From Minisyncoccota bacterium (lineage in GTDB: Bacteria; Patescibacteriota; Minisyncoccia; Phycocordibacterales; UBA9973), in assembly GCA_041675085.1 (NCBI GenBank), contig JBAYUN010000001.1, forward strand, positions 9,829 to 73,828: a stretch of 64,000 nt of DNA, read 5' to 3'. Below, in pieces: positions 693 through 52,229 of this stretch. Each line of letters begins with the position of its first letter. Within the stretch, counting starts at the first letter, position 1. Position numbers and translations under genes: made by a program. A model generated the notes under the pieces. The model was not told the origin of the DNA and did no database searches. It saw only the letters and a program-made list of their open reading frames with translations.

Positions 693-1073
693 TTACTCTA
701 TATGCTCCACACTTACACCTCTAGCTTCAAATGAGGGGGTAAGAACTGAAAACCTGTGGCATTTTTTGAAATCACCCTCCGAGCACATCACACAAACTTT
801 TTTGCCAGTATTAACTGTTTCAACAAGCTCGTCTATTGTCTCCTCATACGCCGTGTTTTCGCCTAAGCCACCAAGATTAGACCCTTTGAATAGATAAGTT
901 ATATCTGCCTTAGCAAGCTCCTCTGAGAGGGCTTTTTGATTGAACTGAGGGCAGAACCTACTCCTTGGAAAACTCCTCACATCAACCAATATATCAATTT
1001 GATTATCTCGGAGTTTTTGTAAAAACTCCGAATACGCTCGACGACTATGACCGAAAGAAAAAATTTTTATCAT
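693..1073 (-). CDS. DUF488 family protein
   Basis: 126 aa; N-terminal 'IFSFGHS' and 'ILVDVRSFPRSR' match the DUF488 pattern (xIYTIGHS ... LVDVRxxPxSR). Confidence 0.7.
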   Translation of the reverse strand: MIKIFSFGHSRRAYSEFLQKLRDNQIDILVDVRSFPRSRFCPQFNQKALSEELAKADITYLFKGSNLGGLGENTAYEETIDELVETVNTGKKVCVMCSEGDFKKCHRFSVLTPSFEARGVSVEHIE

Positions 1074-1081
1074 TTTATTTT

Positions 1082-1654
1082 TTAATTTAATTCAAAAACT
1101 AAAGTATCCTTAGTTTCAGCTTTTTCAATCTCTAATGCATACGGAATAAAATCTTTAGGAACTTCATAGACAATTACTCCTTTTTCTTCAATACCTCTTC
1201 CTAAGTCTCGTCCGTCAATTGCACGCTTTTCTGCTCCAATAGCACCACTGCTTGTTGTTTGAAAAATATCGTAACTTACTCCATTACGATCAGAAAGTAG
1301 AATTCCATTAGGATATAATGTAAAAGTGCTATTTGTAGTATTTATAATTGATACATCAACCAGTATAAAAACTGTTGTGTCTTTTGAATATGTTGTGCCA
1401 AACAAAGCACCATTTATCGTGTTTACAACCTCAAAACCATTCACTCTTAATGATAGGGTGGCAAGTTGACCATCATCCCCGAATGGTACGATTGTTTGAC
1501 CCCTTGTTTCAGATGTCTTTGGTTTCGTATCCCAAGCATTATTTGTGGGCTTAAAAGCCACAAAAACACCACTCAGGGCGATTAAAAAAAGCAAGACGAT
1601 AATACTAAATTGGAAAGATTTTTGAGACATAGAATTATTGCAATCTACAATCAC
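1082..1654 (-). CDS. secreted/membrane-anchored hypothetical protein, possibly beta-sandwich (DUF4352-like)
   Basis: 190 aa; N-terminal hydrophobic signal/anchor (IIVLLFLIALSGVFVAF); rest is Thr/Asn-rich and beta-rich. Confidence 0.55.
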   Translation of the reverse strand: MIVDCNNSMSQKSFQFSIIVLLFLIALSGVFVAFKPTNNAWDTKPKTSETRGQTIVPFGDDGQLATLSLRVNGFEVVNTINGALFGTTYSKDTTVFILVDVSIINTTNSTFTLYPNGILLSDRNGVSYDIFQTTSSGAIGAEKRAIDGRDLGRGIEEKGVIVYEVPKDFIPYALEIEKAETKDTLVFELN

Positions 1655-2021
1655 GGGCTAGCTCATTTAGACTTGTTATTAACCCTTGTGCATTGGAAGT
1701 CTTACTCTGCGACAAAGCACGATTAGCGGTCGCTTCAAATCGTGTGCCTCGTGCTTTGTCCGCTATCACTTCAAGTCCAGCGACCACCATCTTATCTGTT
1801 ACTGAAACTTGATCTCCATTTACTATCTCTAGATATTGCTTGACCATAGCACAAAACGCTACGTCGTTACCCGATTGTGCCTGCTGTGTTGTCACAGGTG
1901 TAGGTGAAATAGTTTTCGTATTTGAGGCATTTGAAGCAATCACTACGAATAAGATAGTAATGATAATGACCAGAAACACAACTATATTGTTTACTTTAAC
2001 TTTTGCTTCTTTTTGTTCCAT
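1635..2021 (-). CDS. membrane-anchored hypothetical protein
   Basis: 128 aa; single N-terminal TM (VVFLVIIITILFVVIA); start codon directly follows the U-tract of the upstream terminator. Confidence 0.55.
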   Translation of the reverse strand: MEQKEAKVKVNNIVVFLVIIITILFVVIASNASNTKTISPTPVTTQQAQSGNDVAFCAMVKQYLEIVNGDQVSVTDKMVVAGLEVIADKARGTRFEATANRALSQSKTSNAQGLITSLNELARDCRLQ

Positions 2022-2053
2022 AAAAAATAAAAAGCTAGCTGATAATTGCTAGC
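2022..2053 (-). terminator. intrinsic terminator/attenuator abutting the start codon of the 1635..2021 gene
   Basis: Perfect palindrome GCTAGC-tgataatt-GCTAGC (2034-2053) followed on the minus strand by TTTTTATTTTTT, then ATG. Confidence 0.6.
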
Positions 2054-2228
2054 GTGGGTAAAACGCACAGAACCCTACGCCAGCTAGGACTTTCGTCCAC
2101 ATACCAGTTTCCCGATATGACCCACTCAAGAGTTGCTGAACGTAGGGTTCAGTATTCTTGAGTGGGTTTTGCAACCATATCCTAAAGTTTCGACGCTCTG
2201 AGGGGTTAGGTTGACTTTATTCAATTGT
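2054..2228 (-). ncRNA. structured ~200-nt 5' leader, riboswitch-like cis-regulatory RNA of unknown class
   Basis: GC-enriched relative to flanks. Minus sense contains an 11-bp perfect hairpin CCCACUCAAGA...UCUUGAGUGGG enclosing CUGAAC-CCUAC-GUUCAG, a GGAC-GAAA-GUCC tetraloop hairpin, and a downstream CGUAGGGUUC complementary to the first hairpin's interior (pseudoknot/antiterminator potential). Confidence 0.5.
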
Positions 2229-2229
2229 G

Positions 2230-2265
2230 ATTAAATTATAGCAAAAATACCCACTAAAGCAAAGA
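2230..2265 (-). promoter_or_regulatory. sigma70-type promoter for the leader and downstream operon
   Basis: Minus sense TTGCTT-16 nt-TATAAT (plus coordinates 2257-2262 and 2235-2240). Confidence 0.5.
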
Positions 2266-2331
2266 TATATTAGTAGGTTATACCAATCGAATATAATTTA
2301 AGTATAAATAAGAAAAAGTAAGTAACTTGAT

Positions 2332-4107
2332 TTAATCAAGTTGCTTGTAGTCAACCTTAAGGAATCGTTTTCTACGATTAAACCTCGCTCTAATGTGATC
2401 TTCGATGTTTAATTTTATTTGATTCTTTCGTTCTTCATTTTCAATTTTGTCTCTATTAAGAGTAAGAATATACTGAAAAGATTCACCCTTTTCCTCTTGT
2501 TCGGCTAGATAATTGAGGCTCTGTACTAATGTGTCTTGATCAACGTCAAATATATTATCGTGCACAAGAAACATTGGATGTCGGGTACTTGTATAAGCAT
2601 TAAGCATTAGAGCGATATCGTAAATAAAAACTTTGGTTCTGTCTACGCTGTGACTTCCATCATCTGGTATTCTGAAATCTAGTTTAACAATCTGTTTACT
2701 TGTAGCAGATTTCACTGTCTCAATGTCAAAAACAATTTCAGCATTACCCATAATATATTCGTGAATGCTGGTCAGAGTTTTATTAAAGTCACGAATAATT
2801 TTTTGTGTGTCAAAAATTTTGTCATCTAATTCTGAAAACAAGTTGTCTTTTTGTCGTTTAAGCGTATCAATCTCTCGGTCTATCCTTTCGTATTCATCGA
2901 GATTGGATGTTGTTGCGGAATACTGATCTTTTCTTCTTGAATATGTATAGAAACTTTCCTTTAAGCTACTTAAAACATCATTTTTATCCACATTAGTTAA
3001 GATCGCAGATCTCTTGTCATCTAATATGTTGAGTTCTTCTTGTATGCTTTTAATTTCTGATTTAATTTCTTCTGCTCTTTCATTAATTAGTAGATTCTGA
3101 TACTTTTCTATCTTCTTTTTGAAATTAACGACTTTTTCTATTGATTCAGAAACAACAGAACCTAATCCTGACTTAAACTTGTCGTATATTAACTGAACTT
3201 CAGAAATATTAATAGACTCAACTTTTGGCATTGATTCAATTCTTTTAATTTCGTATTTTAATGCTAGTTGTCTTGTACGTAGCTTATCTATTGATGCATT
3301 AATACTGACCAAATCATCTTGATTCTGCTGAAACAGTGGTTCTGTTTTGAACTTATCGAGTGCTTCCTCTACTCGTGATAAATCTAAATCTAAGGCATTT
3401 AATTCTGCCTTAACATCAGATATTTTTTTTGCACCAGAATCAGTTAGTCGATTTTTAATATGAGAGTACGTTTGGCTTTTTCCTTCAATAGTTTTAAGTA
3501 TTTTTTTTATTTCCGTTATTAAAATAGCATTTATATTGAAAAAATATAGGTGCGTTTTTGCTAGATTTGAGTAAGGAATCTTATCTCTGAGATCGTGACA
3601 ATTAACAATATCCTTAAACTCAGAATCCTCATCTCTTATTAGAGGACTTATCAGCTGTCTAAAGGTTGGGCGTTCAATATCAGCATCTATCTTGCCACCA
3701 TAAAATAGGTTCGTTAAATAGAGGAGTGCTTCATCCACACTCTTGTATATATTTACTTCATCCTCAGTCTCAATAATGGGTTTCGATGATTCAGCTTTTG
3801 TTCTTTCAATTGTTATGTCCTTACCATTAACTGATAAGTCTAGGCGTATTCTTACATCATCTTTAAATTTATCTAAAGGGATTTTAATTACACGACTTGA
3901 ATCCTCATCTTTTAATAAACAAAAATTGATAAATTCAACGCACATTGATTTCCCAACACCATTGGTTTTTTTATCTTTCCTTGTTTTTTCATTTGAGACT
4001 GTTTCTTTATCTGACACTTTTTCACCCAAAATAAGATTAATACCATCCTCAAAAATGATAGGCTCAAAAGTTTCTGGTATTGAATAAAGTTTTTTTAATT
4101 TAATCAT
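2332..4107 (-). CDS. ABC-3C-like ABC ATPase with long coiled-coil insert (SMC/RecF-like head)
   Basis: 591 aa; Walker A 'NGVGKSM' with an unusual ~20-aa insert (GEKVSDKETVSNEKTRKDKKT) in the P-loop region; ~350-aa coiled-coil region; C-terminal 'DDGSHS' signature-like motif, Walker B/D-loop 'MFLVHDNIFDVD'; 4-nt overlap with the upstream small ORF. Confidence 0.6.
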   Translation of the reverse strand: MIKLKKLYSIPETFEPIIFEDGINLILGEKVSDKETVSNEKTRKDKKTNGVGKSMCVEFINFCLLKDEDSSRVIKIPLDKFKDDVRIRLDLSVNGKDITIERTKAESSKPIIETEDEVNIYKSVDEALLYLTNLFYGGKIDADIERPTFRQLISPLIRDEDSEFKDIVNCHDLRDKIPYSNLAKTHLYFFNINAILITEIKKILKTIEGKSQTYSHIKNRLTDSGAKKISDVKAELNALDLDLSRVEEALDKFKTEPLFQQNQDDLVSINASIDKLRTRQLALKYEIKRIESMPKVESINISEVQLIYDKFKSGLGSVVSESIEKVVNFKKKIEKYQNLLINERAEEIKSEIKSIQEELNILDDKRSAILTNVDKNDVLSSLKESFYTYSRRKDQYSATTSNLDEYERIDREIDTLKRQKDNLFSELDDKIFDTQKIIRDFNKTLTSIHEYIMGNAEIVFDIETVKSATSKQIVKLDFRIPDDGSHSVDRTKVFIYDIALMLNAYTSTRHPMFLVHDNIFDVDQDTLVQSLNYLAEQEEKGESFQYILTLNRDKIENEERKNQIKLNIEDHIRARFNRRKRFLKVDYKQLD

Positions 4108-4349
4108 CGTTTATATATATATGGTTCAGCAAAATCAATAATTCCTGATTGATAAAGGAAAATAAGAGTAAACATAAACTGTCGATAGTTTAACGATCCA
4201 ATTTCTGCTTTTAGCTTTAAAAAAATATCGTCTAGCATAACTTTTTTTTCTTCTGTCTTGCTTATTTTTTTTAAAATTAAATAACCAAGATAAGGAGGTG
4301 AAGTTTTTAGTTTTTCATCTTTATTAATCATATTAATTAGGGAAAACAT
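4104..4349 (-). CDS. small alpha-helical protein, candidate ABC-3C middle component
   Basis: 81 aa; overlaps both neighbours (4104-4107 and 4333-4349), indicating translational coupling. Confidence 0.5.
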   Translation of the reverse strand: MFSLINMINKDEKLKTSPPYLGYLILKKISKTEEKKVMLDDIFLKLKAEIGSLNYRQFMFTLIFLYQSGIIDFAEPYIYKR

Positions 4350-5289
4350 TACACTTAATTAATTCGTCTAAGACATAAAATCGAATCGCTTGGTAGTCAT
4401 ATTTCTTACCTGATTTATTTAAACATTCTGAAAAGTATTCAGTTAGCATATCGATTGCTTTTTTGGGATCTCCGTTTGTTTGTGTAAGAAAAATATCGCT
4501 TTTTATTCTTAGAAAATTTCTAATGAAATTAATCTTTACTGAATCCAAACCAAGAGTATTGTCTACCTCGCTCCTCGCAAGTGAATACCTTGGCAATAGA
4601 TCTACTATTTGATCTCTTAGGAATTGAGAATACTCAGAAAACCTATGCTCAATTTTATTCTCAGGATCTGGTTCTTCCAGCCATTGTTTTGTTTCGTTAC
4701 TTTTATTCGTGCTAAGGAAAACCACTAGATCAGCTATAGTCTCAATTTCATTCGCTAATGTCGCTTCAGGAGCACGGTCTTTTTGACTATCAAACTCTTT
4801 TCTTAGAAAACTACATATCTCCTTTATTTTATCAATATCATCTAATGATCTAATTATGGTTGTCAGTCTAGATAAATCATATATATCTCTGTCTTGGTCG
4901 AAATCAATATTGTCAGGAGAAGTAAATTTTGATTTTGACGCAGTTCTCCTAGAGACAATTAACATAAATCTTAGCGAATCAAATCTTTCTGATAATTTAT
5001 GGTCATTAAATTTTTTAATCGTTTTATCAATTTTTGCTTTCTTTTTTTCAGAAGTAACCTGAAAAGATACTCTAGCGTCACTATCTCCAAGGTCGATTGC
5101 AGGGAAATTTAAATCGAGTTCATTTAAATTTATTAAGTTTAGTTTGAATACAAGATTAAGAAGTTTACAAAAAAAATCTTCTGAAAGACCATTGATATCA
5201 TTCAAACCATTCGTGTTGTGTATTTTAACCAGAGACTCTAAACGACTAAAATAACTTATGATTTCATTGATAAGATTTTGTCGTTCCAT
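4333..5289 (-). CDS. SMEK-like N-terminal domain protein, candidate ABC-3C effector component
   Basis: 318 aa; N-terminal motifs 'NGLNDINGLSEDFFCKLLNLVF', 'NFPAIDLGD', 'RVSFQVTS' match, from memory, the SMEK domain NCBI annotates on ABC-3C effector proteins; C-terminal region helical; no recognisable nuclease/HEPN motif. Confidence 0.5.
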   Translation of the reverse strand: MERQNLINEIISYFSRLESLVKIHNTNGLNDINGLSEDFFCKLLNLVFKLNLINLNELDLNFPAIDLGDSDARVSFQVTSEKKKAKIDKTIKKFNDHKLSERFDSLRFMLIVSRRTASKSKFTSPDNIDFDQDRDIYDLSRLTTIIRSLDDIDKIKEICSFLRKEFDSQKDRAPEATLANEIETIADLVVFLSTNKSNETKQWLEEPDPENKIEHRFSEYSQFLRDQIVDLLPRYSLARSEVDNTLGLDSVKINFIRNFLRIKSDIFLTQTNGDPKKAIDMLTEYFSECLNKSGKKYDYQAIRFYVLDELIKCNVFPN

Positions 5290-21418: not shown

Positions 21419-21493
21419 GGCTCTATCGTCTAACGGTTAGGACACATCCTTCTCAAGGATGGAATCAGAGTTCGATTCTCTGTAGAGTCACCA
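21419..21493 (+). tRNA. tRNA-Glu (anticodon CTC)
   Basis: Manual fold: 7-bp acceptor GGCTCTA/TAGAGTC (one G-U), anticodon stem CATCC/GGATG, loop TTCTCAA, T-arm CAGAG-TTCGATT-CTCTG, encoded CCA. Confidence 0.85.
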
Positions 21494-52155: not shown

Positions 52156-52229
52156 GAGTGTGTAGTTCAGTGGTAGAACGCTGTCCTGATAAGACAGAGG
52201 TCGATGGTCCGATTCCATCCACACTCACC
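52156..52229 (+). tRNA. tRNA-Ile (anticodon GAT)
   Basis: Manual fold: acceptor GAGTGTG/CACACTC perfect; D-arm GTTC-AGTGGTA-GAAC; anticodon stem CTGTC/GACAG, loop CTGATAA; variable AGGTC; T-arm GATGG-TCCGATT-CCATC; discriminator A; 3' CCG encoded (CCA not encoded). Confidence 0.8.

Follow-up and report, generated by a model that had tools for sequence, protein, structure and literature searches.

A LOOT RNA leader with two competing helices, a candidate two-state switch in the cargo of a Patescibacteria mobile element

A 64-kb stretch of DNA from a Minisyncoccota bacterium (contig JBAYUN010000001.1; the whole stretch is called the window below) carries on its minus strand, at 2022..2262, a promoter and a structured RNA leader in front of a probable small operon. 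By its match to the Rfam model the leader is a member of the LOOT RNA family (RF03000). From its sequence and that of its relatives we consider it likely, if by no means certain, that it is a cis-acting two-state switch for the following operon, within the cargo of a mobile element. The leader lies 5' of a same-strand gene, two competing helices both covary, and the segments beyond them have alternative pairings. The 3' extension of LOOT, the two exclusive covarying helices, the common ON/OFF logic proposed for them, the Patescibacteria hosts and the place in mobile-element cargo go, as far as the sequences indicate, beyond the earlier record of the family.

The leader is a LOOT RNA

A scan of the whole window against Rfam 15 returned LOOT RNA at 2086..2212 (-) as its sole non-tRNA match, with 75.4 bits against a gathering score of 46.4 (E = 2.3e-12) and covering model positions 1-121 of 121. 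A permissive scan of 1990..2290 gave LOOT alone, every other family having E > 3. These two scans rule out a curated riboswitch class, c-di-GMP-I included, or a housekeeping RNA; an earlier sequence-only reading, made without database searches, had likewise recognized no common riboswitch or housekeeping RNA and had missed the Rfam entry of this orphan family. The hairpin series of LOOT is present in full: P1 contains an internal loop, P2 is long, and GAAA-type loops cap P3 and P4. The window shares with the Rfam model the four hairpins, the CCUAA/AUGG loop, the AAAA linker and the GAAA loops; the model stops at P4, whereas the conserved unit described here runs on through two further segments, B' and B2, and an output element to the start codon. 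The parts of the leader are listed below in window coordinates, which are used throughout; all lie on the minus strand.

2235..2262 (-), promoter: -35 TTGCTT at 2257..2262, spacer of 16 nucleotides (nt), extended -10 TGcTATAAT at 2235..2243
2086..2212 (-), LOOT core by the Rfam model (cmscan, RF03000), hairpins P1 to P4
2173..2212 (-), P1 hairpin with the internal loop CCUAA (2206..2210) / UAUGG (2175..2179)
2156..2167 (-), A, 5' arm of the P2 basal stem, ACCCACUCAAGA, supported by covariation
2132..2155 (-), B, the entire P2 top, either a small CUGAAC/GUUCAG hairpin or part of a long helix with B'
2120..2131 (-), A', 3' arm of the P2 basal stem, UCUUGAGUGGGU, supported by covariation
2100..2119 (-), P3, 8-bp hairpin with a GAAA tetraloop, supported by covariation and the Rfam consensus
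2087..2098 (-), P4, GGAC-GAAA-GUCC hairpin, from the Rfam alignment
2065..2085 (-), B', switching segment beyond the Rfam model, AGCUGGCGUAGGGUUCUGUGC, pairing with B (18 bp, -28.2 kcal/mol) or with B2
2048..2060 (-), B2, UACCCACGCUAGC, forming an antiterminator hairpin with B'; its 3' end is the terminator 5' arm
2022..2053 (-), intrinsic terminator, GCUAGC-N8-GCUAGC at 2034..2053 and the U tract UUUUUAUUUUUU at 2022..2033, abutting the AUG at 2021

The sequence features that had been read from the letters alone are all there. The promoter TTGCTT-16-TATAAT is present, and its TATAAT hexamer (2240..2235) has TGC in front, which makes it an extended -10; a promoter scanner skips 2235..2262 only because the -35 hexamer agrees at 3 of 6 positions. 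Transcription is predicted to start at A2228 (ACAAUUG...). The leader between promoter and ATG, of about 207 nt, had been described as GC-enriched and structured; its G+C content is 0.435 against 0.337 in the window, and the 218-nt leader folds to -73.6 kcal/mol compared with -48.0 ± 4.2 for 200 shuffles, none of which was as good (z = -6.1). The proposed GCTAGC-N8-GCTAGC hairpin with a U tract running into the ATG was found at 2053..2022. Its stem has 6 bp (4 of them G-C), a loop of 8 nt and -8.3 kcal/mol, and it has the usual make-up of an intrinsic terminator, a G+C hairpin followed by a U tract; at the DNA level the tail after the hairpin (2053..2034) reads TTTTTATTTTTT and is continuous with the ATG at 2021. 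Taken alone, the terminator call is not significant in the window (1 found, 0.8 expected), but it gains weight because relatives show the same arrangement. The perfect hairpin reported earlier does carry CUGAAC/GUUCAG at its top, whereas its basal stem has 12 bp and not 11. The GGAC-GAAA-GUCC hairpin corresponds to P4, the loop of which is mainly GAAA, GCAA or GUAA in relatives. Of the genes behind the leader, the first encodes a 128-aa protein that is hydrophobic in a segment near its N-terminus and the next two encode DUF4352 and DUF488 proteins, where a small membrane protein, a secreted protein and DUF488 had been read.

Rfam has listed LOOT since 2017-2020, as an orphan 'sRNA' of metagenomic origin, and types RF03000 as 'Gene; sRNA'. 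The motif originates from Weinberg et al. 2017 (PMC5737381) and otherwise appears only in lists, in the Rfam 14, Rfam 15 and CaCoFold papers. In the last of these (10.1101/2020.02.04.933952) it is an extreme and unexplained case with 28 'cross-covariations' in its helices, to which B', lying outside the Rfam alignment, might contribute. The literature, apart from the original description in the supplement of Weinberg et al. 2017, which was not covered, yielded no assigned organism, partner gene or function for LOOT, and a literature search found no paper on regulatory RNAs of candidate-phyla-radiation (CPR) bacteria.

Relatives were retrieved with one strict pattern built from the upper-case letters of the Rfam consensus (CCUAA, AUGG, AAAACC, GGGU, GAAA); positions outside this pattern are an unbiased observation. 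It matched 46 stretches in the genome collection, of which 43 were true. By record label these comprise 31 Patescibacteria/CPR (Saccharibacteria, Paceibacterota and Parcubacteria among them), 7 unclassified 'bacterium', 4 Gammaproteobacteria and 1 Bathyarchaeia. The metagenome collection gave at least 119 stretches, mainly on groundwater, lake and sediment contigs, and IMG/VR gave one (L003; L-numbers denote loci); the deposited phage genomes of INPHARED contained no match. After filtering and removal of duplicates, 129 different cores among the matches listed formed the working set. The family was reportedly first described from marine metagenomes with organisms unassigned, whereas the copies seen here come from Patescibacteria-labelled genomes and from groundwater, lake and sediment contigs. 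Among the matches listed, the copies nearest to that of the window belong to two Saccharibacteria-labelled metagenome-assembled genomes (MAGs), with 80% and 77%.

Five LOOT-bearing MAGs, those of L016, L020, L026 and L036 (GTDB records) and of L023, carry unexpected names, four being labelled 'uncultured Gammaproteobacteria' (one of them with an 886-kb chromosome) and one Bathyarchaeia. The LOOT of L026 is nearly identical to a Roizmanbacteria-type copy, and these labels may be wrong or the bins contaminated. One MAG has two LOOT copies (L006 and L043). This, together with variable sites flanked by integrases, rules out a single-copy housekeeping RNA of Patescibacteria. Arrays of LOOT were ruled out as well, as a custom covariance model (R1) found exactly one copy per locus of 8-14 kb and one in the 64-kb window.

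Two competing helices and their output elements

The position of LOOT relative to genes was compared across loci. An ATG open reading frame (ORF) of at least 30 aa on the same strand starts within 260 nt past B' in 125 of 126 usable unique loci, at a median distance of 39 nt (interquartile range 32-47), and in this sense LOOT lies, like riboswitches generally, in the 5' untranslated region (UTR) of the gene that follows on its strand. ORFs of 60 aa or more that start 20-60 nt past B' were found in 73% of loci compared with 11% of divergent-upstream and 8% of random controls, while the gene upstream of LOOT lies on either strand (59 versus 46). The -10 hexamer agrees at five or more of six positions in 104 of 127 loci and its position is conserved; ACAA follows it after 6-8 nt in 73 of 127, which places the transcript start about 10-18 nt before CCUAA. 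The fixed distance to the ORF, the random orientation of the upstream gene and the promoter of its own together indicate a 5' leader rather than a free-standing small RNA (sRNA).

Downstream of P4 the relatives share the segment B' (consensus GCUGGCGGGGAGCUUUGUGUU), which is complementary to the entire P2 top. The resulting B:B' helix, with 13-25 bp and -17 to -36 kcal/mol, is present in all 129 unique sequences. The complementarity of CGUAGGGUUC to the interior of the first hairpin, noticed in the sequence-only reading, turns out to be part of this conserved helix of about 19 bp. Covariation was scored on a MAFFT alignment of the 129 sequences, with 500 shuffles and with partners slid by 1-3 columns as controls, and gave the following values.

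B:B', 19 aligned pairs, 16 changed on both sides, 90-96% of cells paired
A:A' (P2 basal stem), 11 aligned pairs, 8 changed on both sides, 93% of cells paired
P3, 8 pairs, 8 changed on both sides, 99% of cells paired

Over the whole structure compensatory changes occur in 38 of 46 pairs, the share of paired cells is 93.5% compared with 37-46% in the slid controls, and none of the 500 shuffles matched any observed covariation measure. An alignment of 44 sequences gave the same picture. The small apical hairpin of the Rfam model is weaker, with 70% of cells paired and 3 of 6 pairs changed on both sides. Conservation and covariation of the helices in relatives, which had been named beforehand as the check that could overturn the earlier reading, are strong, and a structured conserved domain as in riboswitches is present. 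Many positions of B:B' are mainly U-G pairs and, because of this, the structure is to be read as RNA of the minus strand and not as DNA.

The B:B' helix starts at the nucleotide right after A and stops 3-7 nt before A'. An A-form helix of 18-19 bp is about 50 Å long, and the linkers are too short to join the ends of such a helix to a closed stem; from this geometry the complete A:A' and the complete B:B' would be mutually exclusive, with a few distal A:A' pairs that could persist. Since both helices are kept by compensatory change, both must form at some time.

In nearly all sequences a short segment, B2, comes directly after B' and can pair with its 5' half (typically CCGCCAG with CUGGCGG). 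In the window the B':B2 duplex has -21.1 kcal/mol, which none of 100 shuffled tails equalled, and the last six letters of B2 are the 5' arm of the terminator. The duplicated ACCCAC of the sequence-only reading does occur twice and belongs to this segment, which competes with the terminator. When A:A' was forced in constrained folds of the window and of L045, the B':B2 hairpin formed without the terminator, and when A, B and B' were blocked, the terminator formed. An overlap between B2 and the terminator arm was found as GCUAGC in the window, L045 and L080 and as CCAGC in L010, L023, L079, L118 and L151; the terminator class comprises about 9 loci including the window (about 7%). The alternatives of terminator and antiterminator proposed earlier for a cis leader are supported by the B:B' helix and by this competition.

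A different output was seen in 41 of 125 loci, which have no terminator and in which a second copy of arm A, termed A2, ends a few nucleotides from the start codon (0-3 nt in the cases individually listed). At least 11 different A' sequences each come with a matching A2, the average pairing energy being -19.9 kcal/mol with the own partner and -12.2 kcal/mol across loci. In constrained folds of A2 loci, leaving A' free for A2 halves the unpaired probability of the start region, from about 0.5 to about 0.25. Mutually exclusive expression platforms of differing kinds, as known from riboswitches, are thus found with the terminator (about 9 loci) and with A2 (41 loci). In L015 and L026, B2 could by eye pair with a G-rich Shine-Dalgarno sequence.

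Two further observations concern the region before the start codon. The motif AAAGGUCG recurs between B2 and AUG in L049, L063, L065, L067, L085, L093, L095, L116, L119, L146, L167 and L168; it resembles the P4 5' arm of the same RNAs and could be a third 'copy' element. Most LOOT-led ORFs, including that of the window (2022..2033), have no Shine-Dalgarno sequence, and A/U-rich sequence surrounds their AUG, the next codons often being GAA or AAA, which suggests that LOOT-led messages initiate independently of Shine-Dalgarno sequences.

From these pairings a two-state model can be drawn up, in which we infer the docking contact, the assignment of ON and OFF, and the switching in the cell. In State 1, the LOOT fold, P1 to P4 would form with A:A' closing P2, and the P3 GAAA loop would probably dock into the receptor-like loop of P1, clamping P2 shut. 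The free B' would then pair with B2, hiding the 5' arm of the terminator and permitting read-through into the 128-aa gene (ON). In State 2, B' would pair with the whole P2 top over 18-19 bp, incompatible with the complete A:A', and the released B2 would let the GCUAGC/GCUAGC terminator form and stop transcription at the U tract before the AUG (OFF). In relatives without a terminator the released A' would pair with A2 at the start codon, again giving OFF. That two independent output designs appear to follow the same ON/OFF logic is the strongest argument for a switch.

The proposed clamp rests on the P1 loop. The canonical 11-nt GAAA-tetraloop receptor is CCUAAG/UAUGG, and the LOOT loop CCUAA(C/A)...(U/C)AUGG agrees with it at 9 of 11 positions, receptor positions 6 and 7 being C..U or A..C instead of G..U. 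CCUAA, AUGG and the P3 GAAA are upper-case, i.e., highly conserved, in the Rfam consensus, and the receptor residue names C2, U3, G6, U7, A8 and U9 (PMC11571812) fit CCUAAG/UAUGG. Docking of P1 and P3 across the base of P2 would stabilize State 1, and with a receptor motif in P1 most of the conserved unpaired letters are explained without a ligand pocket. In the window the computed energies are -26.3 kcal/mol for the P2 hairpin, -18.1 for the B':B2 hairpin and -8.3 for the terminator hairpin, and -59.4 for the explicit State 1 and -52.0 for the explicit State 2; rough means over 44 leaders are -88 (State 1) and -81 kcal/mol (State 2). State 1 also forms first during transcription. Being both more stable and earlier, it implies that State 2 needs a trigger or a kinetic route.

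Regulated genes and mobile-element setting

In the window the genes behind LOOT probably form one operon, and the genes ahead of it belong to the same island.

1635..2021 (-), D1, the first regulated gene, 128 aa, hydrophobic segment at the N-terminus; without a Pfam or PHROG family and without a Shine-Dalgarno sequence
1082..1630 (-), DUF4352 protein, probable operon
693..1073 (-), DUF488 protein, probable operon
from 683 (-), 247-aa ORF running off the window start, probable operon
source contig past the window start, 60-aa ORF, then a 570-aa large serine recombinase with a Resolvase domain (L001 8294..10006)
2332..4107 (-), ABC-3C, DUF2326 ABC ATPase, 591 aa
4104..4349 (-), ABC-3C, middle component MC6, 81 aa
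4333..5289 (-), ABC-3C, SMEK_N-domain protein, 318 aa
5431..5922 (-), terminase-small-subunit-like protein, 163 aa (phrog_4102, E = 5e-13)

The island, of about 8 kb, is bracketed by the terminase-small-subunit-like gene and the serine recombinase and has genes for thioredoxin reductase and FtsZ as neighbours; it has the look of a small satellite-like element that integrates. Directly upstream of LOOT and on the same strand lies a complete three-gene ABC-3C system (2332..5289), probably defence cargo of the island.

Across the family the first downstream proteins (n = 126) are unrelated to each other, which rules out autoregulation by the downstream protein. A hydrophobic segment lies within the first 90 residues in 82 of 125. 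Pfam assigned some of the 126 to zinc-ribbon membrane proteins, to nucleases (SNase, NucS_C, VRR_NUC, Mrr_cat, HNH, YhcG), to DNA methylases or to DUF4352, DUF5067 and Pmp3, the majority having no family.

The neighbours of the loci include large serine recombinase integrases (phrog_95, E ~1e-60), terminase large subunits (TerL) of 478-553 aa (phrog_38, E ~1e-66 to 1e-81), ParB-DNA-methyltransferase (ParB-MTase) fusions of 426-445 aa (PHROG scans) and terminase-small-subunit-like proteins (TerS); a conserved regulator gene beside LOOT was not found among them. In the 84 loci of at least 5 kb these genes were counted as follows.

Large serine recombinase, 45 of 84 loci
ParB-methylase, 27 of 84 loci
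Terminase-small-subunit-like, 26 of 84 loci
Terminase large subunit, 18 of 84 loci
At least one of these four classes, 56 of 84 loci (67%)

Integrase and packaging genes thus flank many of the loci, as expected for mobile elements, and in 25 of the 129 unique loci one end of the recombinase gene lies no more than 350 nt upstream of LOOT. Three gene orders recur, namely integrase(-) / LOOT>gene / TerL(-) TerS(-) ParB-MTase(-), TerL(+) integrase(+) / LOOT>gene, and ParB-MTase(+) TerS(+) / LOOT>... / integrase(+), the window being of the last kind. In L085, L160, L028, L034 and others the TerL gene stands right before the integrase gene, on the same strand and upstream of LOOT, and LOOT starts about 40 nt past the integrase stop, an unusual gene order for a prophage; at this distance the LOOT promoter must overlap the end of the integrase gene.

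The comparison of L022 with L047 (-76..+2600 from CCUAA) bears on the downstream gene itself. Promoter, LOOT and the first ~27 nt of the ORF are 93% identical and the part after the ORF 83%, while the ORF body is unrelated and homology resumes exactly past it. With homology lost only there, the gene body has been exchanged inside a conserved frame. Judged by its sequence context, LOOT together with the gene it leads forms a cargo ('moron'-like) cassette, carried by a phage-like or satellite-like element that integrates.

Apart from these subjects, the Rfam scan placed tRNA genes at 21419..21490 (+) and 52156..52227 (+) of the window, unrelated to the leader.

Alternative explanations and comparison with known systems

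Several points weigh against a two-state switch. The computed balance tips towards State 1, by about 7 kcal/mol both in the window and in the mean of the leaders, energies of State 2 being rough as its pseudoknot lies outside the model, and the window has a weak terminator stem (6 bp, -8.3 kcal/mol). Neither a clear terminator nor A2 was seen in about 60% of loci, which have just B2 and then an A/U-rich tail without a Shine-Dalgarno sequence, and constrained folds of these loci give no consistent change in the accessibility of the start site. The coherent regulon typical of riboswitches was not seen in the Pfam assignments of the 126 downstream proteins, which are heterogeneous. Relatives were sampled with a single strict pattern, which leaves LOOT variants outside it unsampled and makes the invariance of CCUAA, AUGG, AAAACC and GAAA in our alignments circular, so that their conservation rests on the Rfam consensus.

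Part of this evidence would suit a constitutive structured 5' UTR without switching, i.e., an mRNA stabilizer, a ribosome loader for messages without a Shine-Dalgarno sequence, or an RNase III site at the ~19-bp B:B' duplex. State 1 is computed to be more stable and forms first, a Shine-Dalgarno sequence is missing before most of the downstream ORFs, which start in A/U-rich surroundings, no output element is obvious in about 60% of loci, and substrates of RNase III are close in size to a duplex of ~19 bp. We nevertheless regard such a UTR as unlikely, as compensatory changes maintain two helices that exclude each other, and B2 on the terminator arm and a covarying A2 at the AUG are hard to explain without alternative folds. 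A trans-acting sRNA whose partners are other transcripts or a protein, with the downstream ORF incidental, would agree with the Rfam type, with the promoter that LOOT has of its own, with a terminated RNA of ~205 nt expected in the terminator class and with the two copies in one MAG (L006, L043). It is very unlikely all the same. An sRNA should have its own terminator and no fixed relation to the next gene, whereas a terminator stands between RNA and ORF in just ~7% of loci and a same-strand gene is fixed in 99% (125 of 126, at a tight short distance); moreover, A2 abuts the start codon and covaries with A', and B' covaries in cis with the B of its own copy. Hardly credible is a site in the DNA on which the neighbouring serine recombinase acts, whether for attachment or as the boundary of a cassette, with A, A' and A2 as protein-binding half-sites. 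The large serine recombinase gene within 350 nt upstream in 25 loci, the swapped gene bodies of close loci with homology ending ~27 nt into the ORF, and an A2 that roughly marks the end of conservation would agree with it, but the helices are full of G-U pairs, which become A-C mismatches in DNA or on the other strand (U-G in 95 of 129 and 79 of 129 sequences at two B:B' positions), GNRA loops and a motif resembling an RNA tetraloop receptor are present, and the structure is strand-specific and lies behind a promoter.

More difficult to separate are the signals to which a two-state leader might respond. The same leader could be set by a macromolecule, a protein or RNA of the element or the host in the manner of phage antitermination or lysogeny control, or by Mg2+, K+ or temperature acting on the clamp. 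The unit sits in elements with integrase and terminase-like genes, the regulated genes are as varied as a global or element-state signal would lead one to expect, and a receptor motif rather than a ligand pocket would explain most conserved unpaired letters; against this, there is no conserved neighbouring regulator gene, position and orientation of the integrase vary, and nothing here separates such a cue from a small-molecule ligand. We hold a macromolecular or physical cue to be possible though doubtful, and put forward with the same reserve that LOOT may be a new riboswitch class or other ligand- or ion-sensing switch, specific to integrating phage-like elements of Patescibacteria and ON when its signal stabilizes the clamped fold against B'. 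An ON switch of this kind would let the element express variable cargo, such as membrane proteins, nucleases and methylases, only in a particular host or infection state. The riboswitch-like cis leader of the sequence-only reading is in sum supported by the comparison of sequences; a strict 'riboswitch' label is not established, because the downstream genes point to no one metabolite.

If the two-state switch is correct, LOOT becomes a switch acting in cis, for which the 3' extension is defined and the ON and OFF structures are spelled out, its host range would be largely CPR bacteria and its niche the cargo slot beside the integrase of phage-like elements. It would then serve as a sequence marker for mobile elements of Patescibacteria and their cargo genes, it would be a compact natural switch built on a tetraloop-receptor clamp and a candidate for a new ligand class, and the Rfam model and type annotation of LOOT would need extending.

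Several known systems resemble parts of this arrangement. Prophage 'morons' and integron cassettes likewise consist of a variable single gene beside an integrase, with its own promoter and a body exchanged between relatives; we know of no structured RNA leader shared by such cassettes, integron attC is a DNA structure, and the integron integrase is a tyrosine recombinase. In attenuators of the trp type four segments compete as B, B', B2 and the terminator 3' arm would in the window, acting as segments 1, 2, 3 and 4, whereas LOOT has no leader peptide and its segment 1 is buried in a tertiary-structured domain. The phage-like context recalls the antitermination RNAs of phages such as put of HK022; put RNAs act on RNA polymerase itself, without alternative pairings of this sort. 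Riboswitches share with LOOT a structured 5' mRNA domain with covariation, a switching strand that pairs with either sensor or antiterminator, and relatives that use either a terminator or start-site masking. They differ from LOOT in that its gene set is coherent for no ligand, its conserved unpaired letters look like a tertiary-contact motif, and its switching helix is unusually long (~19 bp) and uses up the entire top of a hairpin. The c-di-GMP-I riboswitch (GEMM-I) controls a very wide variety of genes, many of them coding for surface or secreted proteins, and is found in phages as well. It matches LOOT neither in sequence nor in structure in the Rfam scan, and its helix order differs, but it has a tetraloop-receptor contact between adjacent hairpins (Vc2 receptor, PMC11571812), as proposed here for LOOT, and would in spirit be the nearest analogue of the LOOT leader.

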